A stretch of DNA of 64,000 bases from Patellaria atrata CBS 101060 (Eukaryota). Below are positions 29,395-62,089 of the stretch, piece after piece. The notes under the pieces are model-generated. The model saw only the letters and a list, made by a program, of their open reading frames with translations. It did no database searches and was not told the DNA's origin. The stretch lies in the NCBI GenBank assembly GCA_010093705.1, contig MU006096.1, positions 642,004 to 706,003 on the forward strand, in the 5' to 3' direction. How positions within the stretch are numbered: position 1 is the stretch's first letter; each line of letters opens with the position of its first letter. Position numbers and translations under genes: made by a program.

Positions 29395-29573
29395 TGTCGT
29401 GATGCAGTTGGTTCTTTCCTTTGTCACTTTCCTTTAGTCAAGTGTTCGAATCCCATCCCCCAACGAACTGATATCACGGCTTAATATTGGAATTATTACT
29501 CCATGAAAAACTAGGCTTTTCTGGACCCTCATCGAAGCCTAGCCTCGATGAGGGTGCTGTTTTGCCTTTTTTT
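29395..29573 (+). ncRNA. Putative Pol III small RNA, copy 1 (A/B boxes, 2x TTTCCTTT(A)GTCA, 3' hairpins, T7)
   Basis: A-box-like TGATGCAGTTGG 29400-29411; repeats 29415-29426 and 29428-29440; B-box GTTCGAATCC 29444-29453; 29396-29413 pairs with 29462-29480; 11-bp hairpin 29525-29555; T7 at 29567-29573. Confidence 0.6.
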
Positions 29574-29577
29574 CTCC

Positions 29578-39531: not shown

Positions 39532-41535
39532 ATGAGTTACCCACCAAATATAGACGCAATGCGGCTCGGGCGCCTCTCAGCTCTCCTCGAGGATATGAAG
39601 CAAACTGTACTCCAACTGCACGACGAGTTCCATGACTTGACGCAGGAAAACTGGCAGCACATTTTGGACGGTCTCTTCCCCGCTAACGCTTCACTTAACA
39701 CGTCTGCCCACGCGAGACCTGCACCTACAAACGCAGAGACGCAAAAGCGTTTGGTCACGCTGCCTCGCCTAAATATCAATCTTTCACAACAAAATCTGGT
39801 GCCTACCTTTCCTACCAGCAACTCTCCACCGCGAGTTGGAGAACCTACATCCACAAGTCCGTGGCTGGAGCCTGAGTTCACATCGATTAACACGCCATCG
39901 AAGCGAGTGAGAGAGGTTACGCTTGAGCAAGAAGCTACACCGACGAAGACCAAGTCGAGACTTTCAATCAGGCCTGCTGGCACACAGAAGGCAACTCCAA
40001 AACGAACTCCAAGGCACCAATCAACGTCATCACAGAAGACCACGCCCAAGCAAGCTTGGAAACAGACTTTGCAAGACTACATCGCACCTACTCAGAATCA
40101 TACCCCGAACATCGCATCTACACAACCCACTACACCTCAAACATCACCCGTGCGTTCAACCACCTCTGACCCAGAAGTTCCATCGACAACAAGGAATAAA
40201 CGCGTGAGGATTGACTACGCAATTGTAGAACGTCAAGAGATCAAAAATATTCTAGCTTCCACAATCGACGATCCCTTTGTTCTCTTAGACGAGTCAAAAC
40301 TTCCCGTCCGTCCACTCCAACTCGGTGTCTGGGGCCCCGTGAGCACCAAAACCATAATGAACAGACCCTTCGGCCGCGGCCCGGTCATCCGGGGCGTCAA
40401 GGAAGGCCCGATGCCGCTCAAACCTGCTGAAGAAGTGCCGAAGGCGGTGGGAAAGAAGCGGGAGCGTCGTCGTACTCTGGATGGCACTGATGATAACGGT
40501 GAAAGTTCCGCACAAGCTACGAAGAAAAAGACCCCCGAGGCACAAATGATCACCGATAAACCATCTCTCAGCACCCCTCCTGCGCAAAGCGCACCAGAGG
40601 TAGTCACAGCCGAGATGGAGCGCGAAGCGAAGCGCAAAGCTGATCTGCGCGCACGCCATCCCGATCTCTACGCCGCGTCACCGATCAAGAAACGTCGCAA
40701 GGACGAAGGCCTCGAAGGTTCCCCTGTGAATACCCTCATGGGTACCATGGCTACCACGCAGCCACCACCAACACCTTCCAGCAAGACCCTCACAGTCCCT
40801 CCGCGCGTCTCCCACAGCATGCCCATCCCGGCCGACGCGTCCATTCCAAAGACGCCCACAAGGGACCTCACGACCTCGGTTGCGCAGCCAAAACCCGCAA
40901 CTCAGATCCACCAGCTGCTAAGCAGCATCCCGAAATCCCGTCAGCGAGATACCCAGTCCGTTGCCCAAGGCACCACAGCGGGTAGTACACCCACACGCCC
41001 AGACAAAGGGACTCAGACACACATGCTTTCTCCCGGCGGCACCGCGGCTCAATACCCCGCAAGTATGTCCCCGACATCCTCCTCCCAGTGGGGAGTGACA
41101 GATTCCAGTCCCGCGACACCAACCGTACACACATACCTCGACACCTCCACCTTTCCGCCGTCCCGCTCCCTCCTCGCCGGCCTCCTCGGCTCCACCGCAC
41201 ACGCCCGTCCCGCGTCCCGTCCTGCTGTCCCGTTGTCCGCCGCGCCGTGGAACCCGCGTGGGCCTTCCCTCCCGGCGGTTCCGACGACCAATGTGGGTGC
41301 ACGGCAAAGCGGCCAGAGTAGACGAGAACAGGGAAGCGAGGAGGGGTTGGGAGAGAGGGATGCGGGCCGCGAGGCGAGCGCGAGCTGTGGCTACGCCACG
41401 GAGAGCGAGGGGGGGGATACGGGGGATGTGGATGGTTGGGAGGGAGGAATCGTTGTGCAAGTGGGACAGAGACGCGCGGTTTCGGTTATCAGTTTAGGGG
41501 GCTCGGAGAGTGGGAGTGAGGGGGACGGGGAATAG
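39532..41535 (+). CDS. Hypothetical low-complexity Pro/Thr/Ser-rich protein with NLS-like motifs
   Basis: 667-aa uninterrupted ORF with basic clusters (KKRERRR, PIKKRRK). No recognisable domain. Confidence 0.6.
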   Translation: MSYPPNIDAMRLGRLSALLEDMKQTVLQLHDEFHDLTQENWQHILDGLFPANASLNTSAHARPAPTNAETQKRLVTLPRLNINLSQQNLVPTFPTSNSPPRVGEPTSTSPWLEPEFTSINTPSKRVREVTLEQEATPTKTKSRLSIRPAGTQKATPKRTPRHQSTSSQKTTPKQAWKQTLQDYIAPTQNHTPNIASTQPTTPQTSPVRSTTSDPEVPSTTRNKRVRIDYAIVERQEIKNILASTIDDPFVLLDESKLPVRPLQLGVWGPVSTKTIMNRPFGRGPVIRGVKEGPMPLKPAEEVPKAVGKKRERRRTLDGTDDNGESSAQATKKKTPEAQMITDKPSLSTPPAQSAPEVVTAEMEREAKRKADLRARHPDLYAASPIKKRRKDEGLEGSPVNTLMGTMATTQPPPTPSSKTLTVPPRVSHSMPIPADASIPKTPTRDLTTSVAQPKPATQIHQLLSSIPKSRQRDTQSVAQGTTAGSTPTRPDKGTQTHMLSPGGTAAQYPASMSPTSSSQWGVTDSSPATPTVHTYLDTSTFPPSRSLLAGLLGSTAHARPASRPAVPLSAAPWNPRGPSLPAVPTTNVGARQSGQSRREQGSEEGLGERDAGREASASCGYATESEGGDTGDVDGWEGGIVVQVGQRRAVSVISLGGSESGSEGDGE

Positions 41536-42561
41536 GGGTGTGCGGATGAGTGCTGATCTTGGGTTGGTGCGTGTGTGGGGATTCGCTGTCGGGGTTACTT
41601 AGGAGCGGAGAGTACGGGTGAGACGGGTGAGACGGGTGGGGAGGGGGTGAGGGAAAGGGGGCAAGGAGATGTTTGTAGTCATTACAATGATCCTTAGTTC
41701 TAGGGCTGCGGCTTTGTTCACTAGTAGGTGTGTGGAGAGATGGTATTGCTAGGTTCTGTCGGCTGGCGCTTTCCCGTCGCCTTACCGTAGATGCCCGTTG
41801 AGATGGTCGGATTGTTCGGTAGTACCAACCTGTGATATTTCGAAAGAGTACAGTGTGGAGACATTCGAGCGGAGAGTTGCTCGTGGTGTTTTCTGCCGTG
41901 TTGCTTTGAGGTGTGATGTGACTGTGACCCCCTTTTGCTTGGTGATACGATGCCAAGTGGATTGGGAGTTTTGGTACTAACTTTACTAGTTTGGTATTAT
42001 TATTGAGTGGATTCGGTTGTTCTATGATTGATTCTTACTAGTGCTAGTATAGTTGCTAGTGGGATTGGGGTTGGGATACTACTGTGTCTTGTTGGAACTG
42101 GTACCGGGTATTAGACTGATCAGACAGTTTAGTCTGGAAGCAAAAGTTAAGGTCAAAAAGTAACAGTAGAGTAATCAATTAAATCCAAATATATCGTACC
42201 CGGAACCAATTCTCAATCCTCAGTGACTACATCCCGAAATTCAGTGCCCGCTGCAATAAATCAATATACCAATACCCCAAGCACGGTTCTTCTTTCAAGA
42301 TCTGTGATGCGACGGCCAACGGGTGTAACTATATACAAGATAAGATAGCCAAGCACCCCCTGGACCGTTGTATGTCCTGATACTGTGTGTGATCCATTGT
42401 GTGCTCAGCTTCATTAAAACCTTAAAAATCCTGTGGGAGAAAAATAGGACAAAAGAGTACTGGCATGGATCTAGAACCGTATTCCTAAAGTAGAGTATAG
42501 TGGTATAGATCAGCCGTAAGATGGGGATGTTCTGGTTGAGCTTACTATTCTCTTTTTTGGG

Positions 42562-42949: not shown

Positions 42950-44460
42950 GGACTTATAGCTTTTGTGACATAGACAAGCGATCTCTGGCTCTTCATTGGT
43001 GAAGAACTGGTCCAAGATGAAGCTGGAAGATCTGCATATTTCTAATCGCCAGTTCACGTAGTGGTGACCTCTCCCGGGAGACGGAGCGGAGTCAGTCCTG
43101 TTGGAGCACGCTATGCATTACCAACAATCTGGATGTATGATCCTTTGATATCTTCGGTGTTGAGGAGAACCAAGATGAGGATGTAGTTGTAGAAATTGAT
43201 CTCGATGCTTGTTTGTACGTCTGGTAATGGATGATAGTCTGAACGGGGGCAGCGGAGACCGGTGGCTCGACGGATACTTCGGAAACAGCACCTGGGTTCT
43301 TGGAGTCCCATGTCCATCTTCAATCATGGAGATGTTCAACGACCGTGTATAGGGATTTTAGAACTCCTTCGCTGGTGCCGTTGTGCTGCGACTCTGGTCT
43401 TTGTGAGATTGCGGCAAGGAGAACGGATAAATCCCCCAAGATATCTATTAGATAGCTGGTGAGTTTCTTACTAAGGGGGTCTTTAGCCCACGGAACAGTT
43501 TTCCAGCTATCGTCATTGATATCTGCAGCTGACTTCCTGGTAATAAGATCTCGGATAATCTGTCTAGGTAGTTTGTTAGTAAGTACACTCCTAGTGAAGA
43601 TTGATGCCATCGAATGTACAATGCCAAAGACGGTAGATAACACCAAAGGGCTTTCGAGATCTTGTTTGAGTTTGCGCCGAGCAGTGTTTAGCAAGCGTAC
43701 AGCAAACTAAGAGTGCCAAACATAGCAAGGCAAGAGATAAGGTAAGTTTAGGGGGCATCCATACGACCATGTTTAATGGTTCTAAACTGGGCGAAGTTTA
43801 CTTACGAGAGATAGCCTGCATGCATCGTAACACGATCGTGAAGGTTTTTCTTGGGAATATCCTGGGCCGCATTGTTTAAGTTTTTGTACAAGTTCGTCGT
43901 AGTACTTCCAACATTTGAAAGGTTTTATCCACTTCTTGTTCGAACTACCTTACTAAATTAGGTAATGTACCTAATGATAACTGACGAGATAGTCATCTCA
44001 CGCACCTCAAACATAGCCATGATCATCATTGAATTATAAGCGATGCGACTTCACCTTTGTCTTCCTTAACTCGTTGAACGTCAAGCAAAATTCAGCCTCT
44101 TAATAGAGCATGCAACCCTTGATAGTAATATCTGGCCGTTTGTGTCGGTTTCCAAAATGGGCCATTGCCAGTGCTTTTGCTGCGGTATGGGCTAATTAGG
44201 ATACAGTTCCCGAACAAGAAAGATCCATCCAAGGTCGTCCAAACGCTCCATAAATAGATCTGGTGAGCAGGAAGTAAACGGCAGTTATATCCTCGAATCC
44301 GGCTGGATCCAACTCCCGAGGAACAGAAGGTTCAGACATGTCCCGAACGGATAGATCGGTAGTATCATACGTAGTATAGCCGGCGCACTTGAAACCTGAC
44401 CTGGAGGACATGGACATCCTGCATCGTCAGTACTCTGCGCGTTCGCCATCTGCAGCTACT
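42950..44460 (-). pseudogene. Decayed Zn2Cys6 / fungal-specific transcription factor
   Basis: Remnants RSGFKCAGY (end of C6 cluster, with an upstream stop), ALAMAHFG, SWKTVPWAKDPLSK..YLIDIL and LEICRS lie in different frames with several in-frame stops. Confidence 0.65.
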
Positions 44461-45100
44461 AATCAGGATATATATGTAAGATTACTCAACAACTCCATTA
44501 CATACCACACTTGATATTTTTTACTGAAGATGTAACACATGCTCTGCTTTTCGGTACACCATCCATTTTCGCAATTTAAACTAGGACTTATGACTTTACA
44601 CAAAGAAACTAAATGATCGTTGGATTCCATATATCAAAGATTAAAGGCTTATATAGGCATTTGAGCATTATCGAGTAGAGTAGAAACATCACGTATCGTC
44701 TTTTAGTAGCCATCTTTAGAATAGAACCAAAACGAATGAAATGTTGACTACGCCAGTACGCCTTGACTTGTCCTAGGAAAGGGAGCATCCCGAGGGATGA
44801 AATCTATCTAATGATCCAGTCGTGATAAAGGCCGATATTAGTCTGTACACTCTGTACAGCTTATCTTAGTTGCTGAGACTCTCTACGAGATTTTCGTCTA
44901 TCACAACGCGTTTTGATGTATCTGACGCTTTCGGTCTAGAATTAACACGACGCCACGTACGATTCCATGAACTAATAAACCTACTACTATACCTTAGCTA
45001 ATTAGAACGTTTAAACCTTATAATCGCTTATTTGGTATTCCTCGAAAATTTATACCCGCTTTTTGTATAAGTAATCTATAATAACTTTAAAGTAATATAT

Positions 45101-45390
45101 TGTTACGGCCACAAGTTGTGAAAGGACGTAGATGGCGAGTGAGGGGAACCACTCGGGAGGACTGCGGACGAGAGTGAGTGACCAGAAGTCACGTGACCTG
45201 GTCGTTCGGTCGTTCGGTCGTTCGGTCGTAGGAGACGACCAAACGACCAACGAGAAATAGGACTGTGAAGAAGGAATACTTAAGGACGCTCCCTTACGCA
45301 TGTATTTAGAATCTTCGTAGTTCTTCTTACCAATAGATTTATCATCTACATTGAATGTTACGGTTTAGAACTTGATTTCGCCTTGTCACA
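45101..45390 (+). mobile_element. Possible solo LTR
   Basis: Begins TGTTAC and ends GTCACA, with an internal TACTTAAG TATA-like box and a GGTCGTTC tandem. Set in TpA-rich DNA. No matching target-site duplication. Confidence 0.4.
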
Positions 45391-45802
45391 CTGTTTTCAT
45401 ACAGTACGTTTTGTCTCATTATGAGCCTTACCCGCGAAGTCAAGGAGTCAGCAGGTTGTATCGTCAACTTGAAGTGCCGAACTCACACAAGTCTCCTATC
45501 ATTAACGAAACCTACCTTCGAGGTTGATCACGTTAGTGAGAAGCCTGGCGCGTTTCTAGACTTATTTTGTTCCGCCTTAATAAGTATTGACTCCCGTTGT
45601 AACATATATCTCAACTAAAATACTCCTATTTTATCTTAAGAGTAGTATTAAGAGGAAGCCCTTTTAAGCCTCTAGCTATTTTATTTAGAATATACTAACT
45701 AACGCGTGCTAGGCCTTCATTAGAACGCGTGTAATCAACTGTAAATAAATCTCTAGTCTGGCCACGTATATCATAATATACGGCACTAAATACGTGCTAC
45801 TC

Positions 45803-46015
45803 CACGTACGGCACGATGTACGGCCCGACATCCGACTCGACGTACGGCATGATGCATGTCCCCAGATACAGATACAGCCCCAAATACGGTATCAGATACG
45901 GTATCAGATACGGTACTATATACGTGCTGTAGACGGCCCTACGTACGGCCCAACTGACGGCACGGCAGACAGCCCTGCCTACCGATCGGCCACGACGTTC
46001 CTATGGGCCGTACGC
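45803..46015. repeat. Degenerate 12-bp-period minisatellite
   Basis: Units such as CACGTACGGCAC, GATGTACGGCCC, GACGTACGGCAT, CGGTATCAGATA x2 and GGCCCTACGTAC. Confidence 0.65.
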
Positions 46016-46657
46016 CCATCTTAAGAGATATAAAAGTCGACGAGGAGCTTGATACGCGGCATACGAGATAGTTTATAATTTTTGACGGAGATCTGACCAC
46101 GTTATAATTAATGTTTAGCGGTTAGGTCTATAGTAGGAGATTTTTGAAGGCTTTAATCTCGGTTCGGGAACTACTTGGGCGAGACTCGGAAGTGCTGACT
46201 GGACGTCCGTAGAACTCGTTCTACGCACTATTTGCAATTGTAAAGCAGCCTAAGTGCGTAAGACTAAATATATGCAGCCTTTTCCAGCCACCGTCGAAGT
46301 TATGTCCTATAACTGCAAGATGTTATCTGCACATAAGCATCCACTTACCGAGGTTCACGGACATCGCCAGTTGGCCAAGGGCACTTGATAGTGAGATGTA
46401 ATATCTACAGACTGCAATTTTGGGTACAATAACTGCGAAAATGTAATCAAACCGATACTTTGTAAGCCGAATCCGAAAAGCTTCTTTGTAGATTCATCAG
46501 TACGATCAGTAAACAGGGAAGTGCAAAATGTCCCCGTCGTATTCACAGAAGCATTATTAGAGTATGGATGTTTATATCTGGAATGCGTCCCACTCATACA
46601 TCGAAACTTCTACCATACGACAAAAGCCATCTACTAAACGGCAAAATCAATCGAACG

Positions 46658-47765
46658 ATGGCACTTCCAAAATCAAACGGGAAACTCGTCCTCATTACCG
46701 GAGTGAACGGGTATATCGCCGCGCAGACAGCACGGGCGTTTCTTGAAGCAGGATACTCCGTTCGAGGAACTGTTAGGTCCCATGGATCGAGCAAAGATCT
46801 TCTAGACGTCTTGAAACGATTCGCGGAGGATGGAAGATTGGAGATAGTCGAGGTCAAGGATATTACATTGCCCGGTGCTTTCGATGAAGCGGTGAAAGGT
46901 ACCGTACAGCTACGCACAACAGTATTTGAGAAGAAGCTCATTAACAGTACTAGGAGTGCATGCAATTGGCCACATGGCCTCTCCGGTCTCAATGAGCTTT
47001 ACCGATCCAGAACCAGTGATCAAGGCTGCGGTGGGAGGAACCAAATCGATCCTGGCATCCGCAAAGTCCAAAGCAGGCCCACAACTTAAGAGTGTTGTCG
47101 TAACCTCGTCTATCGTTGCAATACGTTCTCTAAAGAAGCCACCATATACATTAACAGAATCTGATTGGAATACCTTCTCGGAAGGAGAAGTTTCCAGATT
47201 AGGGTCAGCAGCCCCTGGACCTCAAATCTACTCCGCCAGCAAGACAGCAGCTGAGAGAGCTTTCTGGGAATTCAAAGATGTCGAAAGGCCCACATTTGAT
47301 ATGTCAGCTATCAATCCTGTTTTTGTTATTGGCCCAGCTTTGAAAGCACCTAGCAGCCCAGATAAGATCGGCGAGACACCAAAGCCAATATGGTACACTC
47401 TAACAGGACAGGAGATTCCGCCTCCTTTTGGAGGGACCAGTACTTTTGTCGATGTACGTGACGTCTCTAGGTTGATGGTATTTGCGGTCCAATATCCCGA
47501 AATAACTAGCGGTGAACGCTACATCGCTTGCGGAGGCCTAGCAGGAGAGCAGGCACAACGGGATATCTTGAGAGCACAGTATCCAGATCGACATCATATC
47601 ATCAAGATAGGGGAGCCTGGAAAGGGATATAGAGCCGATTATCGATTTCCGGAGGGAGTTGTTTCAATCGACAACAGTAAGGCGGTCAAAGCTACTGGGC
47701 AGGACTGGATTCCATATGACCAGAGCGTGATTGATACTGCAAAGTCATTCGAGCACCTTTTGTAG
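46658..47765 (+). CDS. NAD(P)-dependent epimerase/dehydratase family aldehyde reductase (GRE2/ARII-like)
   Basis: VLITGVNGYIAA, VRGTVRS, HMASPV, TSSIVA, YSASKTAAE, VDVRDV. Intron 46899-46953. Confidence 0.92.
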
Positions 47766-49353
47766 AAGTTATTTCGGTACCTGTTTAAGGAATCTGTTTT
47801 GTTTTCTACTCTTGGGGGTAGTGACTAGGAGAGGTGATAATGAGACTTATGAATAGAAAGTACTGCGAGAGAGTATCCGTATCAGCTTATCATCTCCCGC
47901 ATTGCGGTTAGACAATCCTCGGCTTTGTATTTTTACCAAACAAAAGCTGTAATACCGCTACTGTGCAGTATTAACCAATTTCGAGTGCATGTACAACCAA
48001 GCCGTTCGGAGCACCAAAAGTATTTGTACCTTGACCGGTATCTATACTGTACAATAGAGTTAAGGACACCTTAGGGGAGCGGATGAATAGCACCTAAATT
48101 AACACTGGTATTATTTCAATACCACTGGTAATTCCGTGGATTTTGTTCTTCGCCGTACAGTAGTGTTAAAAAGTTCAACGAAATAGCTTACAGTAGGTGA
48201 CGGATGCCGTCACTTGCAAGGGACCATGTTTAACATATTAAGCAGCCATTCAGTCAGTTGACAGTCCTATCGAATGGTACCTGGAAATTGAGGCTATTCC
48301 AGCCCTATTGCGATGTGAGCTGGAGTTTAACCTGGTCGAAAGAAAAGGTTCTCCACGATATGCAAGAAAAGAACCCCTTAGACTACATAGGTGTTGTTGC
48401 CTCTCGTTAGCTAAGTATGTAATCGACACTCACTAATTTAGTCATCCTATTCTGGGGATGTATCTGCCTGGATCACTCGTCCTAGTATCATGTATAGAAA
48501 GCACACCGACTTGCCACTTTGCCAAAGTAATCCCAACAATCAAGCGGTATAGTATGCGTTCTCATCCGGCACCTAGGAGCGGGATAGGGCCACTATCCAT
48601 TATTTCGAGAAAGTACTCAAAGGAGTCAGGGTATCTCTTGAACCACGGTCCAACCTTCCTTAGCTTTCTTGCCTTAAACTGACGAATTCCTTTTCAAATA
48701 AAAAATGACCGAAGCGGAGAATTGACTGGAATTGGCAAGCAAACTGTTGAAGGTGGGAAAGACTTGTTTGCAACTTACGAACCTGAATGCCTCTCCTTAG
48801 CTCGGCATTAACGATACATACCCAGCATTTAATGGAGAGAAGAAGGTAACATTCCTTAGAGACTTGTTACGACGTCAGTTGGGATGAAATTCTTCAAGTG
48901 GAGGAGGTCGAGGGGATGATTCGGAAATCAGCATAAGGATTTGATATCCGGCAAAAGCTGCCCACTCCACTAGCGTAACACTGCGCCCCTTATTGTGGCT
49001 TAGTTACACACCAACCGCCCGCTTTCCCTTTCCCTCCATCGGATACAGTAAACTCAGCAATTGCTCAATTTATCTGCTGTGCCCACATTGCCTTCAAATT
49101 CCTGCAGCAGATTGCTCTTTTCTTCCTTCCGTACTACCCTCCAAACGTCTTCAATACTTCCATCCGAAGGTACTTATTAGAATTGGTGCTTAAGCACCCC
49201 GCCGACCGAATTTCTGGGTGATCGCCACGCCGATCTCTGAATCACCTCACTCTCAGGCACAAACGGAAAAGCAGACCACGCGAGCAAACCCCAACTGCCA
49301 CCCACCTTCCATTCTCCATCAACCTTTACATCAAACTCTATAAATTTGCAACA

Positions 49354-50238
49354 ATGCACCCGAATCAGCGCGTCCGCCTCTTTGCGCTCCTCATGATCAT
49401 CATCGTCATAACACTCATCTACACCACCTCCTCCGCCCGCCGCACGCGCTCCTCGGATTTCTACGTCAAGACGTCACAAGCGCTGCAAGAGCAGGCCGCA
49501 CGCGCGGCCGACGCCAAAGCCGCCGAAGCCTTCTCGGACGATCAGGTCAAGGCGCGCCTCAGGGAGGCCGAAGAAGCGGCCAAACGGTCTGCGGAGAAGA
49601 AGGGCGCGCGTGTGCAGGAGATCATTTCGGATGAGGCACGCAGAGAGACTGGGAACGAGCGGGAGGTTGTCGGTGGTGCTGCTGGCGATGGTGATGGCAA
49701 GAGTGTCGCAGGCAGGGTGTACCTGAAGCCAGGTGAGAAAGAGACCGTAGATGGGGTCGCGAGGGTAGGAAATACGGGTGATGGGGTTCAAGATGGCCCA
49801 CAACCGGAGACACAGGAGACGCTTAGAGAGCATGAGGTCGAGCAGGAGTTAAATTCTATCCTGAAGAAGAGTCCAAGTGAGTTCATTGATGAGGTTGTCG
49901 TGGGAGGGGTTGAGCGGGGCTAATGAGGAACAGTCATCATATTCTCGAAGACGTACTGCCCGTACTCCAAGAAAGCGAAGCGTATATTCCACCAGTACAA
50001 GATCACTCCAGCGCCGTACATCGTCGAAATCGACGAACATCCCTTGGGTCCCGAATTACAAGCCGCACTTGCCAAGAGCACGGGACGACGAACTGTACCG
50101 AACATCCTAATCAACGGCAAGAGCATAGGTGGCGGTGACGATATCGAGGCTCTGCATGAAAGTGGCAAACTAGTTAATACGGTCAAGAGCATGGGCGGAA
50201 AGCGTATCACCGAAGCCGCCCTAATAGAAGCCTCATAA
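49354..50238 (+). CDS. Monothiol glutaredoxin with N-terminal membrane anchor (Grx6/Grx7-like)
   Basis: TM helix LFALLMIIIVITLIY; intron 49877-49933; FSKTYCPYSKKAK and TVPNILINGKSIGGGDD. Confidence 0.9.
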
Positions 50239-50581
50239 AAGTAAGGTAACTACAGCACGGCCACAGCACGACATAACATCTCAAAAGGAGCGGAGCCACA
50301 AGTTCTCCCAATAATACACATCGCTCTCCTACTGTTTGCATGTTTTCATCCTTCGGGGCGTCAATTGGATGGTTACCCTGGGTTACGACCTGGCGTTCAA
50401 AAGAGTTGGAGGCGTTTTTACAAATCAGATACCCTGTAAGATACTCACGACGCCTCGTCTAGTAGATAATGGAGAGTATGCTATGCATCACATCATAGAA
50501 ATGCTTCGGTTCAAGATATAGATAACATCCGCATATTTTACCATTGCTACATTTTCAGTGACATAACCTTATCTTTCTCCC

Positions 50582-50998
50582 ACCCCCTACTTACTACATC
50601 GACACCCCTTCTTAAAACGGGAGGTGACTAACCCAAAGGCAGTCAAATTGCACATCCACGCCGGCGTAAGCCCCTCTTAAGCGGTCTTAGTATAGCATCC
50701 AGATTTTATCACAGATTTAAACTCTTTAGTATAAATACGGTAGGTTAGATTTGTGCTTAGATACGTCATTAGATAAAGTATTAGATATAGCTCAAACACA
50801 TACTTATATACGGCTTTAAATTAGCTAGTAGTTTATAATAGTATATATAAATTTAGCTATACTTAGCGGTAGAATAAGTATACCGTACCTTTGAGCTGAA
50901 AAAGTAATGTTTGGATTTTAGTGCTATGAGATATAAGTTTTGCACGCCCTCTATAATAAAAAGTTCGACTGCATTTTTAGATGTAGTAAGTAGGGGGT
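50582..50998. mobile_element. MITE-like element or DNA transposon remnant with 19-bp inverted repeats
   Basis: ACCCCCTACTTACTACATC (50582-50600) and its exact reverse complement (50980-50998) flank an AT- and TpA-rich interior. Confidence 0.65.
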
Positions 50999-51242
50999 TG
51001 TCGAAATAACAGGTCCCCCCTTTATTACTTCCCTTCACAATACTACTCCTATATTACTGAGGTGTACACTTACGCCCCCATATGCCCACGGATGATGTAA
51101 TTTCGCTCGGAAGTGCGCTTCGGGTGTTGTGACTTTGTGGTGTTGTTATTCCCTGATGTTGTACCTACAAAGGAGTAACCGTTTAGGCAAATCCCATCAC
51201 CAAACTCATCCCTTATAACCACTTAGACGGTGATCACTTTCA

Positions 51243-51394
51243 ATTCTGGCGGCAATGGCTGAGTGGTAATTTTCCTTTGTCATATTTCCTTTAGTCAAAT
51301 TTCCTATAGTCATCAGTTCGAGCCCCGCCTCCGCCAGAATATAAAGTTAAATGCGTTCGCCGGGTTAACTTTCCCTCTACGGAGGTTTTCTTTT
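51243..51394 (+). ncRNA. Putative Pol III small RNA, copy 2 (A/B boxes, 3x TTTCCTWT(A)GTCA, 3' hairpins, T-run)
   Basis: Perfect 10-bp stem ATTCTGGCGG (51243-51252) / CCGCCAGAAT (51331-51340); A-box TGGCTGAGTGG 51256-51266; repeats at 51271, 51285 and 51300; B-box GTTCGAGCC 51316-51324; hairpins AAAGTTAA/TTAACTTT and CCTC-TACG-GAGG; TTTTCTTTT then longer T runs. Confidence 0.68.
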
Positions 51395-51992
51395 GCACTA
51401 TTTTTTCCCCTCTTTTTTTTTTTTTCTTTAACTGTACAAGGTTCTGTTAGGGGTGTTATTTGACTACGCCATTTGTTTTGTTTTTGTTGTGATCCAACGA
51501 TAGAACTCGATTGCTGGACTCTATGTTCGCGAGAGGGTTAGTGGAATAAAGGAGCCTAAGACTTTACATAACGACGTGGAATTTATAGGCGAAGGATCCT
51601 ACGTGGGTTTGTCCGTAGTGTTTCGAGTAGCTATGGTGTGTATATATTCGTTAGTTTCGAGATTTGTAGGGTAATAAACGTTTTGATAGATGTGAGATCT
51701 GCCTTTCTAGCTCCCTTCAGACGTCTATGTAATAAGAAGGTATGGAAACAGATGCGTGATAGGCGGCCCCCGGCCCGCCGAAATAATGAGTGGTGGATAG
51801 CGTATATGTCACTTACGAATCAAGTAGGTAGAACAGTGAACAGTCAAGCTTGAATTTAAAGAAGTAGGCATATATTAATTGGATAGAGGATATCAAACGG
51901 TAGAGAAGGAAATGTTACCGAATAAATATGTTTGATATTGAATTGATATGAAATACTTGTACGGAATACCTGTACCAATCTTCTATTGAAAA

Positions 51993-52858
51993 CTACTGCG
52001 TCTTTCCGTACGAATTGAATAGTGATGCTCCCGGTAGTTTGCGACCATCGCTCAAGGTACGTTCAGTTTTCCGGACATACGCTAGAAGAAAAGGATAGAT
52101 AACATCGGAGATTGTTGTAGTAGTCCACATGAAAACCGAAAACGGAGACATGAAGTACTCGTGTGCTTCCCTCCAATGATACCATAAGATGCCATACCCG
52201 ACTGGAAGACCAAGGAAAGAACCAATGGCTCGGGTTATCCTAGTTAGTTAGTAGGAACCTAAGTATAGTTCATGTGAATGCAAACGTACCAAATACCATA
52301 ACTCACACCTCCGCTATGCCCTCGAGTAAGCAGTTGAGCCAAGCTACTGGTAGATATGTACAACTGGATGATAGCTGCAGTCCAATACCCCAATTCGGTA
52401 GTATCAGGACCCAAACGCCCATGATAGAACTTTCCTTCTTTCCGACCGACATCATTATCCACCCACCATTTCGAAAACGAACCAACGGCCGCAATAGACA
52501 GAAAAGCCAATACGGCAAAAACGACATGTAGATTTTTGGTGATCAGGGGTGAATGGCTCCACTCATTTTTACCGTATTGAAGAAAGCAGTAGATGAGGGG
52601 AATGTCAAGGAGAAGCCAGATGATGAAAACAATCTTCTCGAGAAGTTCTTCGGCGACGAATAAACCCATCACTATTTCCCAGCCGAAATTTAAGGTCAGA
52701 GCTAGTAGAGGCATACCGTAGGATTTGGTTTTGAAAGCTTGCCGGACATGGAGAATGTAACATATAGTCCAGAGAGGTCCCGCAATTGATAATATCACGC
52801 CTGTCATTGGGATAACATAGGATGGGACATGTGGCGGTGGAACATCGTTGGAGCCCAT
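51993..52858 (-). CDS. PaxB/Pyr4-family integral membrane terpene cyclase-like protein
   Basis: LWTICY..V....KTKSYGMPLLALTLNFGWE, WLLLD, RGHSGGVSYGIW, final SDVIYP. Intron 52289-52240. Confidence 0.85.
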
Positions 52859-53217
52859 TTTTGCGGTTGAAGCTGATTGACGAGGTTTGTATCTGTAGGT
52901 TGAAATAATGTTTTTATAGGCGTCCAGCTGCCAAGGAGGGAGCACTTCCAGATTAGTACTACAATACGGCCGTATAGGACGCCTCATGGAGTGCCTTGAT
53001 TTGTGGTATTTACCTTACCGTAAGATCTCACGCCGCTGTGCTTCCGTCATAAATCTAGGTTTTATCGGCCAATTCTAAAGTACAGATGCCGCCGGATCGG
53101 GTCCTCACGGGATACACGGCAAGGTCTAAAGTATAGTCATCGGTATCCGCTCTTCCCGGGCCGAAAACGCGGAAATGGTTTGGGTATCATGTATATTAGA
53201 TTGTCTGATCAACAATA

Positions 53218-54321
53218 TTATGCGATGTCCTCTCCCAACTTTCCTAAAACTTGCAGAACTTTCAATACATTCCTTACACCTCTAAGGGTGTTCTCGTCGG
53301 GTCCTAGACCCTTTTCGAACCTTGCATGCGCAAAGTCAATGAGCTTCACTATCGCGACTTTTGGTGTGTCATCCTCATCATCCTCTTCTGCCATCTCCTT
53401 CTCTGTATAATCCTCCTCTAATGCTCGCTCCTCTTCCTCTACAGCAGCATCGTAAGCTTCACCATCGCCTTCGTAAGCGAAGAGTAACGAAGCTGAGTAC
53501 ATTCTGCTCTCCTCTTCTTCAAGGACAACCTGGATATCGCTTATGGCAGCAGAAAATCGCTTAATTAAGTCTGCGCTCTTAGCAGGTGTGATCCCAGCGC
53601 CAGGTACACATAGAAATTCTTTGAAAGCCTTCGTTATATTATCCACGGTGAAGGTGCGTCCATACATCTTATTATAGCTCCGATAATTCTTGCTCGTATC
53701 GAGTTCAGTATACTGATAGCCAGGCTTGTCGTCCGATCCTGCAGCTGGAGATGCTCCTTTCCAGACTTTCATTCCCGCAATTCTGAACCCCAGACTTGAA
53801 GACGTCGTCTCCCTGGACACTTTATCTAGCTTTTCCCGCTTGTCTAACGAGGCTTGCTCATCCCACAATTGTGCACCAAGCTTGATGTCCAACACATTTG
53901 GCTTTGTGAAACTGGCTGTTATATCTTCGAGCACAATGCTTATCTCCGTCGAGAGCTTTTTACCCTTCAATGGAGTATCTTCGAAGGTTGACGAGGTTGC
54001 TACTTCAAGCGCAGCTTGAGCGGCGGCCTCAGGATCGGCAGTTACAGCAGACTGCGAAGCGTCATTGAGTGCAAGTGTCCCGTAGAATTGGGGCATATGT
54101 GCCGCGAATCGGGGGTGTGACGCGATGGCGGTGCCGTAAAATTCAATCTCAGCTTGAGTACATGGCTTGATGATAAAGGAGCCCGTATCGTCAGATAGGA
54201 CACCATCACTACTCAGTAGTTAGAAATCATGGTTTCCAGATGAATAGAAATTGCGAACATACTGGCCCGCTGCGGCATTGCCAAAAGCCTGAAGCTTGGA
54301 GGGGTCGAGTTTGGAGGACAT
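53218..54321 (-). CDS. IPK2: Inositol polyphosphate multikinase (Arg82/Ipk2)
   Basis: AAGHDGV across intron 54262-54209, IIKPCTQAEIEFY, PNVLDIKLG, SSSLGFRIAGM, SASLLFAYEGD, KLIDFAH. Confidence 0.93.
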
Positions 54322-55061
54322 AGTTGTATAGCTGATATAAAGTTCAAGAAGGAAAGTGGAAGATTCAAGGGAGACGCAGGTCCAGCTGGAGGGGTCCTAA
54401 ATAGCACCCCCACACCCCGCGATAACTGGGCGTACGCGTCCAGCGTAAGCAAGGCATAACCGGTCTGTGTGGCAGAGTACAGGAAACGAACGGCTACATC
54501 GGCTCGGCTGGAATGCACCATCCGACGGGGATCTCGGAACCTGAAGGACAAGGGTTGACGCAGTTTCAACTACAACCCATCAAACATGTAGAAGATATTG
54601 TTGTTTTGGGCATACAATCCATCTAGAGAATGATAGCAAGGCGTTTGTACAGTATGTGGGCCTCTCAAGGGCGCCTGAGATCATGTTGAAGCTCTAGGTA
54701 GGAATAAACGTTTCATTGTAAAGACATCCTGTTCTCCATAATAAATTGATTCAATGTCGTATTCGAAGTTCCGGTGCCCATCCTCATCATCATCACTATC
54801 ATTATCGGCCCTCTCAATTATCACAAGCTCATGCAAGTTCCCGTATGATGCGTCCCGACTGTCCCTCTTGCAGGATGTGACTTCCTTACGTCTTCACTCG
54901 TTCTACCCTACAAACAAATCCAATCTCTATAATAATTCCGTCTCTCTCTTTCTTTTCAACGACCTATCTCATTCAGTAAAGCCCACCAACTTGACCACTT
55001 CCCCATCTTAATTCGATTAATAGCGTCGACATTCGTGTTTGACCAATTTCTCAATCCAAGC

Positions 55062-57301
55062 ATGGAAAACCAAAAGGAAAATAAAAATCCTAAACCAGAT
55101 CCAATTATCGAGACGATGACTCTTAGAGTCGATAACCTGAGGATTTTTGGGGACAGCAAAATCCCTGACACTCAAACTGAGTCTAGTGCTATCGAGGTAG
55201 CCTTGCTAGCAAAATCACCTTCTACTATTCCGGCCAACCCACTTGACGGCGCAGAGATACCCGACCATCCAAAAGGCGATGAGATTCGCAGACAAGTGCG
55301 TGCTGCTCATACCCTTACCTAAGTGGGAGATAACACCCACTTCGTCAATACTCCCACTCAAGACCAATTGCGATAGACTAACATCATGCCCAGGTCGAAT
55401 ACTACTTCTCCGACGAAAACCTACCCACCGATATGCACTTGCTCGAAAAATGCGGCGGTTGCGAGAACAACCCAGTGCCCATCAAGCACATCTGTGGCTT
55501 CTCCAAGATGCGCAAATATAAGCCTTACCTCCAGGTCGTTGAGGCGCTTCGAAGGAGTGACTTCCTAGAAGTCACGGAGGATAAGAAGGTCAAGCGACGA
55601 GTACCAATATCACGATCCTGTCTGGACCTAGACTGGAAGGAGAAGAACGATGGTATCGACAAGCTAAATTCCAATTCTAAGCCCACGATGCCCAGGCCAG
55701 AACGGCTGCCAGATGCGCCCAAAGTCGTTGATCCTAGGGCAACGAAGCCAGGCATGACAAAAGGAATGCTGAAGCCCACCGGCATGGAAGAATACTTCGC
55801 CGATGCTCCCGTCACACCCGCCGAGTTCGAAGAGGAAAGGGCAATGTACGACCTCGAGAACGACTTCCATGAACGTATCGAGACCGCCATCCAACGCTAT
55901 AAAGCACGCCGCAAGTTCCATCAAGGTCCCAAGCGCGTTTTCGACGCCCTGATGCACTACAGCGGTATCTACTCCGGCCCCAAGCAATTCACAGGCAACC
56001 TCACCCCCGAGGAAATGGAGAGGTACGATGCCGGCGACATCGCCCGCTTGAACGCTACCCACTTCGTCGGAGAGGACAAATACGATGACACAAAATGGAG
56101 CGTCGATTTCGTCGGCGTGGCGCAGGGTTTTCTATCGAGCAATCTCATGACGTTCATCCACTCCCTCCCCTCCCCGGATCCCCGCATCGCGACGCACGTT
56201 CTGCAGAACTTCTACAACTACCTCCTGCACCACAACGTGTGCGTCGAGCACACCGACGCCATCTACAAAGCCCGCGCCGTCTGCAAACAACACGACGCCG
56301 AGTGGCCGCTCGTCGAGGGCGCAGGACACGCCATGCCCGGCGCCTTCTCGGTCGCCTGCTCGACGCTCTTCGGCGGCTACTTCGAGAACGTCTACATCGG
56401 CGGCGAGGACCACTGGAGCGTGGGGTACAACTTCAAGCACGGCAACGTCGGCATGTCGACCGAGGAGGCGCGCATAGTCTTCACCACCGGCATCGCAGCT
56501 TACGGCACCGACACCATGTTTGCCTTGCTCTTCCCCTCTGCTAACATTTCCAATTCGGACCCGAACTCGGCATTCAAGCTCATCGACCCCTTGACCCGCA
56601 TCCGCGTTGGCTGTACCTTGGACCTCGGCCTCGAAGTCATAGGTAAGTCCCCCGCGTCCCCCGAGATCAGAGCCGTGTACGACGGCCAAACACACCTCCT
56701 CCACGGCCGAGATACCAAGCTCAAACCCCTCGGGATCCTGCAAGTGCGCTACTGGAACCCGCCCGGCTTCGAGGAGTGGGATCTCCCCGACTCCGTGCTG
56801 GCCGAGCTCGCGAGCCTCGAGGGCCGCACCTTCGACCTCTGGCTCGAGGACGAAGTATTGGAGATGTGTTTTGTCGGCATGAAGATGGAGGGGAAGTTGA
56901 GGAGTCTTGTTTTTGAACCCGATGACGATAACGGTAACGGTAATGGTAAAGGGGTTAATGAGCATCGTAGTGAAGAAGTCGACGGGTTTGAAGTCCTCGG
57001 ACTAGCCGAGAAGAAAGAAAACGAAATCCTCTATTTCGAAGGCCCATGGCAGACTCACGTCAGCTTTTACAGATACCTCCCAAACGAGCTTGTCCTCAAG
57101 CCTGTCAAAGAGATCAGGTGGTTTTTCAAGGATGGAGAGAAGGTCGTCGAGGGCGGGGATAAGGGCGTTAGTTTGCCGCCTAGTTCCGCGAGTGGGACGG
57201 GGGATGGGGGGAGTGTTAAGGGAGTTGATGGGAGGGGGGTGCAGGCTGAGGAGGTTGAGGAGTACATATTGGGTTCGAAGGGAAGGAAATTGCGTGGTTG
57301 A
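55062..57301 (+). CDS. Argonaute siRNA chaperone Arb1-like protein with an N-terminal La motif
   Basis: Intron 55296-55393 builds the La HTH IRRQVEYYFSDENLPTDMHL. It is followed by Arb1-type PTGMEEYFADAPVTPAEFEEE...ERIETAIQRY and NFYNYLLHHNVC. Confidence 0.85.
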
Positions 57302-58005
57302 TAACTGGTCTGAGGCTGAGGATGATGGTATCGGCAATGATACGGATGTCTATTATATCGATCTCTTATTGGCTGATATTCTCGAGACGATGTTTGTAGC
57401 ATTAGGAATCAAAATCATTGGATATCAAAGCCACTAGAAATGAAAATAGCTATCAAAACCATCACGACTCCCACTGTAACTCCACCTCCTGAGATCCCAC
57501 CCTAGACACAAGTATCAAACTACAATGCGCCGCAGCGTTACCAATGCCCATGCCCATGTCCCTACCCTACTCATACTCCATCCGATCTCGGGCTTGAGCC
57601 TCATTATACCCACTCCGCCTATCCCTGGTTGGTTACTTCATGCTTACCATACTATAAAGTATAAGTGGGTAGGAGACCGATAGGTCTATAGTAAGATGAT
57701 TCATTGACCTAGGTGCCCAAATACAGCCAGGGATCAATCGAGAGCGTTGAAAATTCCCGTATAAAAAAGTTAAAGCGCAGATCCGATTTGAGCGTGACAA
57801 GTCGGTAAGCGGAGTGATAGAACAGCATTACGTTATGACAGTAACGAGTTTGCCATCAGCAACTTGGTTAGGAACAGGCACCGGGATCCAGTATCCCTCG
57901 CATAGCAAAACACCAATCGCGCATGAACTCCATCAGAACCCAAACCCCGCCCAAGCACGCAGAACTAGATATCCAAAACCCTCACACTTCCCAGCTAGCC
58001 CAAAC

Positions 58006-60003
58006 CTAAACGCTAAGACCATGCCACGCGCTCTCCCTCCTATCCCACCACATCTTCACCCTCCCATCCCTCTCACCCGCACTCTCATCTTCCCCGGCCT
58101 TCTTTTTCTCCCTTTCCCTCTCCCTTTCAGCATCCTTATCCGCGCTAACCGTCCTAGCATGTCTCCGATCCTCCTGCTCAGCCGCCAGCCTCACTCTCGC
58201 CAACTCGGCCGCAATTCTCTGCCCATCAGACGCGGGTCTCTGCGCCTTCCCCCCCAAAAGCGCCTTCGAGCCTCCAACAACAGCCGACGCCGTCGCCGAA
58301 CCCGCCGAAACCGTCTCTCTAAACGACGGCCGCATCCTCCGTCCTTTTTCCGCATCGGTAGCGACCGAGTCGCGGTGGTGGACGAGCTCGTTGTGCGCGT
58401 AGGGACGCCAACAGACGAAGCTGCCGAGGAAGGAACCGTCGGAGCTAGGGATGTGACGCCATGGTTTCTCGCGTAGGGAGAAGACGATCGAGTCGACGGT
58501 GCCCATGGACGTGAGGCAGAAGATGGTGAGGACGCTAATGACGTGAGGGGGATGGTTGGCGTAGTAGTCGCTGTATTGCATGCTGTGAAGGATGTATGGG
58601 AAGACCCACCACGCTATGTAGACGAGGGGGTAGATGAAGAGGAGGCGGAGTTGGCGACGGATGGCGCGTCTGCGGGCCCTCATGTTGCGGTCTGCTTCTG
58701 GTTGAGTTTTGGAAGTTTTGTTGGATGTATTTGACGGGGAGTGGTCTGCAGGGGTACCAGTGTTAGGGGGGGCGCCATCGGTAATGAGACATAGGTCTAT
58801 TTCTGGCCTTGAGTATATATTGGAGTCGTAAGTGTCGGAAGGGGAGGTTTGAGCTGAAGGGAAGGTGACTACAGAGGGTCGTCGTTCTGGATTTACGTGA
58901 GAGGCTCCATCAGTGTAAGCGACGTCTGCTGATGCTTGCCTAGAGTGCGCGAGCGCTCCCGAAACTATGGAATGCCGTCGACTGTGGGAAGCGATAGGAG
59001 GCATAATTGGGTCTGTGGGAGCGGTAGCATCCCAGATGTCAGAGTGAGAAGGCTTTCTAGCAGCTGGAGAATTAGTATGGTTACCAGAGTGATTGGTTGC
59101 GCTTTCATCGGGTCGCACTCCTGATACAGTTTCACCGGTGCTGTAATCCATAGACGATCCTTCGAACTGTCTGAATTGAACACATACATGCCAGTAAATA
59201 GCAATTGCAAGAGAGAGAATAGTGACGCAAATAATGTATCGCGGGCCCCAAGATAAGGCAAGTCGGTACCAAATGGGGCGAATAGGGAGAGTGCAGAAAG
59301 GTCCTTGAGAGCGGAATGGGTCGTTCGGGTTGACAAAGGCAAGCCCAGTTATTAACGTAGGGATTATTATGAGACAAGCGTAAACGTAATGCCGGTAGTT
59401 GTAAAGGCCATCAGATGCATTGTGTACCATAGGTGGACGGAACACTTGCAAGGCAGCATGAATCGCTATGAAGAAAGCTGAAAAGTCTGGCAAGATACAT
59501 GAGAATTCCGTAAGGCAGATCACCGTGTGGAACTCTCACCGGCCAACACAGTCCCCCATTGTACCATGTATCCATTTCCTTGACAGAATCCTGTTTCGGT
59601 CTGGACTGGGCCATCAATAAATGCAACCATAGCAAAGACCAAATACCACAGATTTCTGCATAGGTCTCCGGTGACGAGGAACATGATTAATCTGTAATGT
59701 AGTTAAATATTGCACACGTCTAATTTCTACCGTGAACACTTACTTGTGCCTGAAGCGCTTCCTCATGCGTGCGAACCAATAGAAGGTTACTAAGGTAAAT
59801 AGGACACTGATAGAGGACGTTACGGCTGCGAGGACTTGGAGGGTGAAGGTAAATCGATCGGAATAGAGATTCTTTGTGACCGCCGCGTCGTTGAGACTTC
59901 GAGTATGGATTTCATTGAACTGCTCAGTAAGGATATCGGACGATTCTGGAAGGAAATGAGATGTTCTCCGCAGCAGGGTCGGAATTAGAGGATAGGTTTT
60001 CAT
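58006..60003 (-). CDS. Git3/Gpr1-family (carbon-sensing class) G-protein-coupled receptor
   Basis: FYWFARMRKRFRHKLIMFL, FCQGNGY, CTLPIRPIWYRLALSWGPRY, IRRQLRLLFIYPLVY, VDSIVFSLREKPW. Two introns. Confidence 0.92.
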
Positions 60004-60653
60004 GTTTAGTAGGGAGATATAATTTCAAGGGAAATGACAGTGAGCGCTACCAATTCAAATTTGGTTGGCTCAACCATACTCTAAGAAATGTTCGAAGAGA
60101 CGAAGAAGGACATTAGGTGCGATGTAGGCAAAGGGTCAAGATAGTTCCAGAGGGGGACTCGGACTGAAATAGAAATCTGCATACGCGGTTGTCACGGTTG
60201 TTGCGCTAACTTCGAACGAATAGAAATCGAATCGACTTAACATTATTTCAGTTTGGCATCGACTATCTCACAGTTTAACTAGTGTTGTTTCTCTTTTGAC
60301 GCGTTAAACTGGCAAGATGTTTGAGTTGAAAGCGGAAAGCTCAGGATGGACAAAGGGGGGAAACTGCAACCATACACCAAGCATGGAATTGGTGGTACGA
60401 CCTCTACATTCCTTAGGTTAACCTTGTATCTATTCTAGAATTTCGAAATTGAAGCGCTTAATTACTGCCGAAGCAGTTTGGATAGCATTGACTAGAGATT
60501 TTTCAGCATACTGATCGAGATCTGCATGATATGATAAAGAAACATCACTCCGATGCTTGAAGATACTTGCTATAGTATACCTGTCTTGAGATTAGGGATA
60601 AACTCCGATCAAATGCTCCAAGTAGTACGACGATCTACCATCCGGTGGATCTA

Positions 60654-61580
60654 TCAATCTATACTCGGCCCGAGTACTATGAGACTGAATCTGAGCTCTC
60701 CACCACCGACCTCTTGCTCGCGCTTGATAAAACTCCTCACACCCAAGTCGAGTGCTATTTCGGAGAGAACATCTTCCTCAGCGCCTAGAATGCCTCGTTT
60801 TAAGGGTCCTTTGCGTCGACCGTCAAGTTCCCACAGTGCATTATCTTCAGACTTGATAAAGCAGACATAATGTAGATCCACTTTATCATCCGCCGCGGGA
60901 GCCGCCGTATCACCACCGCTCGCCGCTTCTTGATGCGCACTTTCAAGGGCTTGCGATTCGTAGAGTAAGTCGGCCCGATCCATTGGTTTAAGTGGGATTG
61001 CGTCTGCGAGCAGCTTTGCAAGCTGAGTTTCCGGTTCTGTTTAGTACGTTAGGAAGTTTTCGACTACAATGCAAATGGATGGAACAATGGGCACGTGGGA
61101 ATGTTCAAAAAGAAAAGCCACACACCTATGAATGCCCGTGCAGCGCCGTTTGAGACACCATGGAGCAGACCTATTAAGCCACAAGCGTTTCCTATCGTCT
61201 GCTTATACCATACTACTTCTTCTTGAGGGCCAGAGCCATTATACTCTTCCTTATCTGCGTCCTCGTTTCTTCGAAAACCTTCGTATGTCTCGCTAACGGG
61301 AAAGACTAGTAACAGAGCGTAGGCTGGTCGAGGCGTGAAGGCCAGAAGTTCTGGGTCGTCTATGGAGAAGACGTCTTGAAAGCCCAATTTTTTGGACATA
61401 CCAAGATTGTGCATCAAAGTGGACATCACCTCAGGATTGTTTTCTATCCCAGTTAGTTTCTTTGATCATATAATTAGGACACTTGAGAGATCAACCTAAT
61501 GGGATGAACCTCTTGCGGGATCTTGGTACATCCGGGTTATCCAGATTATGATCATCTATCTTTTCCTGAACGGTAGCCAT
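60654..61580 (-). CDS. YUH1: Ubiquitin C-terminal hydrolase, peptidase C12 (UCH-L3/Yuh1)
   Basis: FIPLENNPEVM, KQTIGNACGLIGLLH, LHYVCF, LWELDGRRKGP. Two introns. Confidence 0.93.
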
Positions 61581-62089
61581 TTTGGAAAGGCCTCAAAGGT
61601 TGAAGGAGTTACAGGGTATCGGGTAGATAGAGGGAAGCTCTCGAAGTTATAGTATCAATGGAAGAAAATGTGGAAGCAGACGCGGCATGGTGGGGTACTT
61701 GAACTCGGGGTTGACGCGAAGTCAGCAGCCTGGCGCCTGCTAAGTTCTAGGCAGATGTCACATACCGCCGAAATAAGGACTCGGGAGTTGGACTCTTTAT
61801 TTTATGAGAAAAAGGGGGAGTGAGAAGGATTTTAAGATGGAACACCGAGGGACACCGGGATATTAAAGAGAAACAAATATTTGCTGCAAAACCCCCTTTT
61901 ACCGACCCCTATTTGATATGTTGCGACAACTCAGCGTAAATAGTACATTTTCTATATCTACACATCACGGCCGTTAACCGTCTTTGTTACTCAAAACTTT
62001 TTGTCTGGCTTGAACTCCGAACAAAAGATTAAAAGTCTGCCCCGCAGAAGTACTCCTCATACTTTATTATTAGAATGCGATGGGGAAGT

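Follow-up and report, generated by a model that had tools for sequence, protein, structure and literature searches.

The two loci described here are best explained as members of a tRNA-derived, RNA polymerase III (Pol III)-type, multi-copy small-RNA gene family whose RNAs display single-stranded motifs, an explanation given about an even chance of being correct. The observation on which it rests is real and is not a product of chance. One of the loci, copy 2, is probably either a small RNA specific to its lineage or an element of the SINE-like kind. Taken together, the loci look like members of a dispersed family whose short genes are gutted tRNA genes, with tandem, pyrimidine-rich motifs of 12-13 nucleotides that would replace the anticodon arm.

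Structure of the Two Copies

Both loci lie in a single 64-kb stretch of DNA, the whole of which was analyzed and is called the window here. Copy 2 occupies positions 51213-51425 of the + strand and reads, from left to right, TTATAA, closing stem, A box, three units, B box, hairpins, and T-runs. The original prediction had listed the TATA-like sequence, the stem, the A box, the three units, the B box, the hairpins, and the T-runs, and all were recovered at or near the positions it gave. This is the arrangement of a type-2 Pol III unit preceded by a TATA, and use by Pol III is predicted. The inner part of the closing stem (ATTCTGGCGG/CCGCCAGAAT, 51243-51252 / 51331-51340) is a perfect 10-bp inverted repeat. 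When extended, the stem has 17-nucleotide arms that are 88% complementary (51236-51252 / 51331-51347) and is composed of the 10 perfect base pairs plus 5 more past a 2x2 mismatch, for a total of 15 bp. The 5’ arm of the 8-bp hairpin that follows overlaps the outer closing stem, so the two pairings are alternatives.

The layout was said to recur 22 kb away, and this is confirmed. At copy 1 (29355-29573) the parts are present in the same order with two units instead of three. The A-box consensus is TRGCNNAGTGG. The architecture claimed for copy 1 holds overall, although its A box (TGATGCAGTTGG) departs from this consensus at one position. Each locus has, on a single strand, both boxes followed by a run of 5 or more T, and at both the B box starts exactly 4 nucleotides past the last unit. 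The spacing from A box to B box, start to start, is 60 nucleotides in copy 2 and 44 nucleotides in copy 1. The features of the two copies are listed in Table 1.

Table 1. Features of copies 1 and 2, with positions in the window.
Feature	Copy	Position	Strand	Basis or remark
TATA-like TTATAA	2	51213-51218	+	~22-30 nt ahead of predicted start
Closing-stem 5’ strand and predicted 5’ end	2	51236-51252	+	Inverted-repeat search
A box TGGCTGAGTGG	2	51256-51266	+	Fits the consensus
Unit 1 TTTCCTTTGTCA	2	51271-51282	+	Motif search
Unit 2 TTTCCTTTAGTCA	2	51285-51297	+	Further contigs have C at 51292
Unit 3 TTTCCTATAGTCA	2	51300-51312	+	C at 51307 in one other contig
B box GTTCGAGCC	2	51316-51324	+	Pattern search
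Closing-stem 3’ strand	2	51331-51347	+	Inverted repeat and fold
8-bp hairpin AAAGTTAA/TTAACTTT	2	51343-51350 / 51365-51372	+	Inverted repeat and fold
CCUC(UACG)GAGG hairpin	2	51374-51385	+	Sequence and fold
Terminator region	2	51386-51425	+	T4 51386-51389, T4 51391-51394, T6 51401-51406, T13 51413-51425
TATA-like TATTTAATA	1	29355-29363	+	Sequence
Closing-stem 5’ strand	1	29396-29409	+	14 bp, one bulge, two G-U pairs; fold
A-box-like TGATGCAGTTGG	1	29400-29411	+	Read directly
Units TTTCCTTTGTCA and TTTCCTTTAGTCA	1	29415-29440	+	Motif search
B box GTTCGAATC	1	29444-29452	+	Pattern search
Closing-stem 3’ strand	1	29466-29480	+	Fold
Perfect 10-bp hairpin CCCTCATCGA/TCGATGAGGG	1	29526-29554	+	Inverted repeat and fold
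Terminator T4 and T7 runs	1	29560-29573	+	T7 = 29567-29573

Occurrence of the Motif and Likeness of the Two Copies

The pattern TTTCCTWTNGTCA has three matches in the 64-kb window, all of them within the two loci, against an expected 0.03, and none of 100 shuffles reaches three. Exact matches to TTTCCTTTGTCA in the window are likewise confined to the two loci. When up to one mismatch is allowed, TTTCCTTTGTCA has four matches against an expected 0.42 (0 of 100 shuffles reach four), and the one-mismatch matches outside the two loci are found at 4216 and 59331. The B-box pattern GTTCRANNC occurs 15 times in the 64 kb when both strands are counted.

The likeness of copies 1 and 2 extends beyond the units. 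A 13-nucleotide sequence around the predicted start, TTCAWTTCTGKCG, is common to both, and a C-rich tract 3’ of the B box aligns between them. At its base (CCCTC...GAGG), the UACG hairpin of copy 2, the last in that copy, aligns with the long hairpin of copy 1, and the T-runs of copy 2 align with the TTTTGCC-T7-CTCCC terminator of copy 1 (TTTTGC..T6-7..CCC). The sequences flanking the units are more alike than shuffled sequences, both upstream (5 of 500 shuffles) and downstream (4 of 500 shuffles). The stems had been described as unrelated in sequence; they do differ in sequence and in register, but the shared TTCAWTTCTGKCG and the likeness of the flanks show that they are not entirely unrelated.

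The nhmmer program links the two copies weakly (E 0.07-0.3), and it does so through the units. The window copies are so diverged that covariation rests on one sequence pair. Both of the differing stems pair. The earlier argument that the motif is conserved while the stem is not is a tentative one, drawn from just two diverged sequences.

Further Copies in DNA Contigs of One Sample

Contigs of DNA runs X1 and X2, both from one sample, were compared with positions 44000-62000 of the window. The distinct further contigs over the unit region number six in X1 and five in X2, and all contain a C at position 51292, where the window contains a T. Beyond the window’s own sequence, the unit region occurs in the sample in no fewer than five or six variants. 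Copy 2 had been labeled the second of two copies. This is correct for the 64-kb window, in which nhmmer located no third copy, but not for the sample.

At 51292, the C-carrying contigs account for a summed depth of 4609 out of 4848 in X1, and for 7426 in X2. The single contigs that flank the region have a depth of approximately 303 (X1) and 442 (X2). The summed depth of the unit region is approximately 16 times that of the flanks, a ratio that suggests roughly fifteen copies, with the reservation that summed contig depth is no copy number. The further copies are near-identical (at least 95%), and approximately 100 nucleotides or more are preserved, which is beyond the boxes alone.

The long contigs break at copy 2. 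The unique upstream sequence ends at 51265, and the unique downstream sequence starts at 51401 or 51455. A word length of 31 letters was assumed when the contig ends were read. Under this assumption, the upstream end at 51265 places the start of the shared sequence at approximately 51235-51236, which coincides with the start of the extended stem and with the start expected approximately 22 nucleotides after the TATA. Under the same assumption, an exact-match contig spanning 51262-51337 consists of all the words that contain the window’s T at 51292 or 51307, so the sequence on either side would be shared with other copies.

For one other copy, the upstream flank is visible for 30 nucleotides, as a loose end before 51234. 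This flank contains CCCTTATAA at the same offset and matches at 10 of the 21 other positions. As far as this flank can be read, a CCCTTATAA kept within divergent sequence is what a Pol III gene family under selection for its TATA would show. A joint from 51297 to 51340 marks a copy in which unit 3, the B box, and the stem’s 3’ strand are missing and the downstream part is shared. The similarity of the contigs in the downstream direction runs to 51397, and variant units were also seen.

Genomic Setting

The window is nuclear DNA of the filamentous-ascomycete type, with intron-bearing housekeeping genes and a GC content of approximately 47%. Its genes include GH125, Nup84, RNase P/MRP p29, succinyl-CoA ligase, inositol polyphosphate kinase, Arb1, and a Pyr4-like terpene cyclase.

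Copy 1 is located between two of these genes. The succinyl-CoA ligase beta gene (- strand) has a stop codon at 29578-29580, where its last exon ends, 4 nucleotides from the T7 run of copy 1 (+ strand), and the 3’ UTR of its mRNA must therefore run antisense through all of copy 1. On the other side, copy 1 (29385-29576, + strand) is approximately 330-400 bp upstream of the RNase P/MRP p29 (Pop4-type) gene (28105-29061, - strand) and is divergent from it. That a tRNA-processing factor adjoins copy 1 may be a coincidence.

Copy 2 is in a 2.3-kb gene-free interval. This interval also contains an AT-rich low-complexity stretch (50700-50990) approximately 250-550 bp upstream of copy 2, which could be a decayed repeat. 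A solo-LTR-like repeat of 504 bp (45101-45604) begins and ends with TG...CA, its inverted termini being TGTTAC/GTAACA, and a 5-bp direct repeat, TATAT, flanks it. It contains an internal GGTCGTTC-type microsatellite that some contig joints skip, and its summed contig depth in the DNA runs is approximately 35-45 times that of the flanks.

Two other observations were made in the window. A 667-amino-acid ORF (39532-41535, + strand) is located in a GC-rich stretch (58% GC at 40001-42000). It is present in the protein collection, and among the 8000 candidates scored no relative other than itself was identified at E<=1e-30; it looks like an orphan or fast-evolving gene. At 24975-25003 (- strand), inside a PhoD-like ORF, A-box-like and B-box-like sequences start 20 nucleotides apart (at 25003 and 24983), and this pair is taken as chance.

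Folding and Strand Signal

The shell of each copy, which takes in the closing stem and the sequence within it, folds better than shuffled sequence. The copy 2 shell (51236-51347) has a z of -3.04, with 2 of 200 shuffles folding as well, and the copy 1 shell (29390-29480) has a z of -3.20, with 1 of 200. The full-length fold of copy 2 is no better than that of shuffles (z -1.16, 24 of 200).

On the - strand, the copy 1 shell shows no fold advantage (z -0.41; 69 of 200 shuffles equal it). The copy 1 stem needs G-U pairs and folds well on the + strand only, which points to a signal at the RNA level. The strand with the better fold is the strand that contains the boxes and the T-runs.

The interior is poor in G, with 3 G in 49 nucleotides in copy 2 and 3 G in 32 nucleotides in copy 1. 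With so few G, the interior pyrimidine runs have nearly no pairing partners, and thus no anticodon stem or T stem can be formed.

Comparison with tRNA Genes and Catalogued RNAs

The statement that the element cannot form a cloverleaf is borne out by ARAGORN, which identified 0 tRNA genes in the window, both by default and with introns of 0-120 nucleotides. When the threshold was lowered to 70%, ARAGORN returned a forced model at 51247-51337 in which 6 of the 7 acceptor pairs form, the T-stem has 2 bp, and an intron falls at 33/34, which is the wrong place. This forced model shows that the shell descends from a tRNA and has lost the cloverleaf.

A check against Rfam had also been proposed, and it gave 0 matches at the gathering score. 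At E<=10, each of the two loci has six weak matches at the level of noise, none of them to tRNA, Y RNA, vault RNA, SRP RNA, or RNase P RNA.

Two further assignments were considered and rejected. No branch-site-like CTRAY is present for a spliceosomal intron (GTAATT ... YAG), and the removal of such an intron would leave too little RNA. A C/D-box snoRNA at copy 1 (GUGAUGC ... CUGA) fails in that the outside nucleotides form no terminal stem and the Rfam snoRNA matches are no better than noise.

Searches Outside the Window

A metagenome scan for two adjacent units returned seven loci, all of which are plain tandem duplications of the 12-nucleotide word in unrelated contigs, without A or B boxes. 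A scan of prokaryote genomes for a unit with a B box returned one chance match in a bacterial coding region, and a scan of viral contigs for the unit and B box pattern without its last bases returned 0 matches. None of the collections scanned is designed for fungal genomes, so this absence says little about conservation.

In the literature, the matches listed for the unit and its variant, read on either strand, all concern unrelated topics. The excerpted text of a paper on fungal ncRNA motifs (PMC5640933) describes no tRNA-like or Pol III motif, and a survey of small RNAs in A. fumigatus (PMC2377427) has 0 occurrences of the term ‘polymerase III’.

Mobile and DNA-Level Alternatives

The main alternative is that the family is a tRNA-derived, SINE-like or otherwise mobile repeat, which recently multiplied in the genome either as a short DNA element or through its Pol III transcript. 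Its internal promoter would then be formed by the A and B boxes and the unit array would be an internal minisatellite, with no function for the host. This explanation is possible but doubtful. It agrees with the several copies of at least 95% identity, with the sharp beginning of the similarity near the predicted start, and with the variation in unit number and sequence among copies seen in the loose ends and the deletion-type joint. Published fungal tRNA-derived SINEs also offer a precedent of like size, copy number, and boxes. According to the excerpted text of PMC5063351, they are 140-900 bp in length and are present in 5-160 copies. AfuSINE2, MgSINE, and Foxy share with the element a tRNA-derived head with A and B boxes, a 3’ part unrelated to tRNA, and a low to moderate copy number, and in the AfuSINE2 families both boxes are degenerate and, as in the element, no cloverleaf forms (PMC5063351, excerpts).

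The differences from these SINEs, as they are described in the same excerpts, are found at the ends and between the boxes. The element has no A/T-rich or trinucleotide tail and no target-site duplications were found, and it has a conserved upstream TATA and a tandem motif array between its boxes. No flanking direct repeats of at least 8 nucleotides (seed 6) were located at either locus, in a search that is blind to repeats of 4-7 nucleotides. In place of an A/T-rich, A-rich, or simple-repeat tail, the element ends in T-runs that align between the diverged copies. Copies 1 and 2 are alike in the upstream promoter region, as given above, and a third copy has the same TATA box at the same offset. 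Both facts count against a SINE because a retroposed copy would not carry an upstream promoter. Copies 1 and 2 also keep different, well-paired stems, one of which includes G-U pairs. An assignment as a MITE was rejected because the copies have different inverted arms and no target duplication, and because the stem of copy 1 needs G-U pairs.

A second alternative is that the loci are decayed tRNA genes or DNA-level elements that serve neighboring genes, with any RNA being irrelevant. They would be TFIIIC-binding relics (like the ETC sites of yeast) or clusters of transcription-factor sites on the - strand, where the units read as TGACTAA-type sequences that we take to be AP-1/bZIP half-sites. 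This is decidedly unlikely. There is no gene start near copy 2 on the - strand. A binding site would have no need of a TATA, of a strand-specific stem with G-U pairs, or of aligned T-run terminators, and the near-identical copies preserve approximately 100 nucleotides or more, beyond the boxes. An ETC site or relic would be a B box standing alone or with an A box; instead, a TATA, a stem, 3’ hairpins, and a terminator were found, and align, in both copies.

In a third alternative, the locus is a genuine tRNA gene whose intron is unusual, or whose structure is split, in a way that standard tools miss. This would account for the perfect A box, the good B box, the acceptor-like stem, and the tRNA-gene-like family structure of a TATA box with divergent flanks, but is highly improbable given that no cloverleaf forms with introns up to 120 nucleotides, that the G-poor interior cannot make an anticodon stem or T stem, and that only approximately 48 nucleotides are left once the unit array is removed.

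Likeness to Known Systems

The closest likeness is to tRNA genes of the S. pombe type, in which TATA boxes are located 20-35 bp before Pol III starts (PMC4600332, excerpts). The element shares with such genes the A and B boxes and their spacing, an acceptor-like stem, an oligo-T terminator, a TATA approximately 25 nucleotides before the start, and multiple copies with what look like divergent flanks. It differs from them in lacking a D-stem, an anticodon arm, and a T-stem, in being unrecognized by ARAGORN and by the Rfam tRNA model, and in having a 3’ domain of approximately 70-100 extra nucleotides before the terminator.

In vault and Y RNAs, the 5’ and 3’ ends pair and enclose a large internal loop that is partly pyrimidine-rich, and vault RNA genes have internal A and B boxes. 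The element resembles both in its paired ends and pyrimidine-rich loop, and vault RNA also in its A and B boxes. It differs in having no Rfam match to either at E<=10.

The Class I RNAs of Dictyostelia, as described in the excerpted text of PMC7919456, offer an analogy of design only, with no sequence relation. They too are a lineage-restricted, multi-gene small-RNA family. Their 5’ and 3’ ends are held together by a stem whose sequence changes while its pairing is kept, and they have a short, conserved, mostly unpaired motif and conserved upstream promoter elements (PMC7919456). Unlike the element, they are approximately 60 nucleotides in length, contain one 11-nucleotide motif, and have an upstream DUSE and no A or B boxes (PMC7919456).

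Proposed RNA and Mechanism

For the preferred explanation, a small-RNA gene family, we infer transcription, the ends of the RNA, and every step of function as follows. The predicted genes would be approximately 150-190 nucleotides in length and would be read by Pol III, with TFIIIC on the internal A and B boxes and TFIIIB/TBP on the TTATAA approximately 25 nucleotides upstream, as on fission-yeast tRNA genes. Transcription of copy 2 would start near 51236-51243 and stop in the T-runs at 51386-51425. Of a tRNA, the RNA would retain just a shell, in which an acceptor-like stem closes the molecule and the A and B boxes supply the sequences of the D-loop and the T-loop, respectively. A pyrimidine-rich loop of 32-49 nucleotides that is predicted to be largely unpaired would take the place of the D-stem, the anticodon arm, and the T-stem. 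This loop would bear two or three UUUCCUYY(A)GUCA units, possibly more in other copies, and the shell would be followed by one or two hairpins and a U-tail.

Four observations are consistent with a family of genes that spread as DNA and has been kept by selection. The promoter and terminator are conserved between two old paralogues. The TATA is at a fixed distance in a third copy. The stems differ yet pair. The G-U pairs make the fold asymmetric between strands.

The most natural guess is that the RNA would act as a decoy or scaffold by showing the repeated motif to a sequence-specific RNA-binding protein. It is less probable that the motif pairs with a purine-rich target. The motif reads as a polypyrimidine tract followed by YAG, and the majority variant (C at 51292) keeps the YAG. 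Judged by their letters, the UUUCCUYYAG-UCA motifs resemble 3’ splice sites or sites at which RNA-binding proteins attach; the likeness to YAG is an observation and not evidence of a link to splicing. In the most specific version of the proposal, which is speculative and rather unlikely, a tRNA gene of a filamentous fungus would have turned into a new and abundant class of small Pol III RNA encoded by many genes, in which a variable UUUCCUYYAG-UCA array takes the place of the anticodon arm. As a multivalent decoy or scaffold, this RNA would titrate a factor that binds pyrimidine tracts.

Ssd1 was considered as the binding protein. The Ssd1 site is CNYUCNYU (PMC8934651, excerpts), which has two matches in the units of copy 1 and none in the units of copy 2, and the idea was rejected on this count. 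The sole match of copy 2 is in the 3’ domain, and Ssd1 is kept as a weak lead.

Implications

If the loci are SINE-like, the element would be an unusual one, without a tail or visible target duplications and with its own TATA box, and it would help in annotating repeats and tRNA pseudogenes in this lineage. To our knowledge, very few fungal Pol III RNAs are known beyond tRNA, 5S, U6, SRP, and RNase P/MRP RNAs. If the small-RNA family is real, it would be a new class of fungal regulatory RNA and a clear case of the re-use of a tRNA gene.
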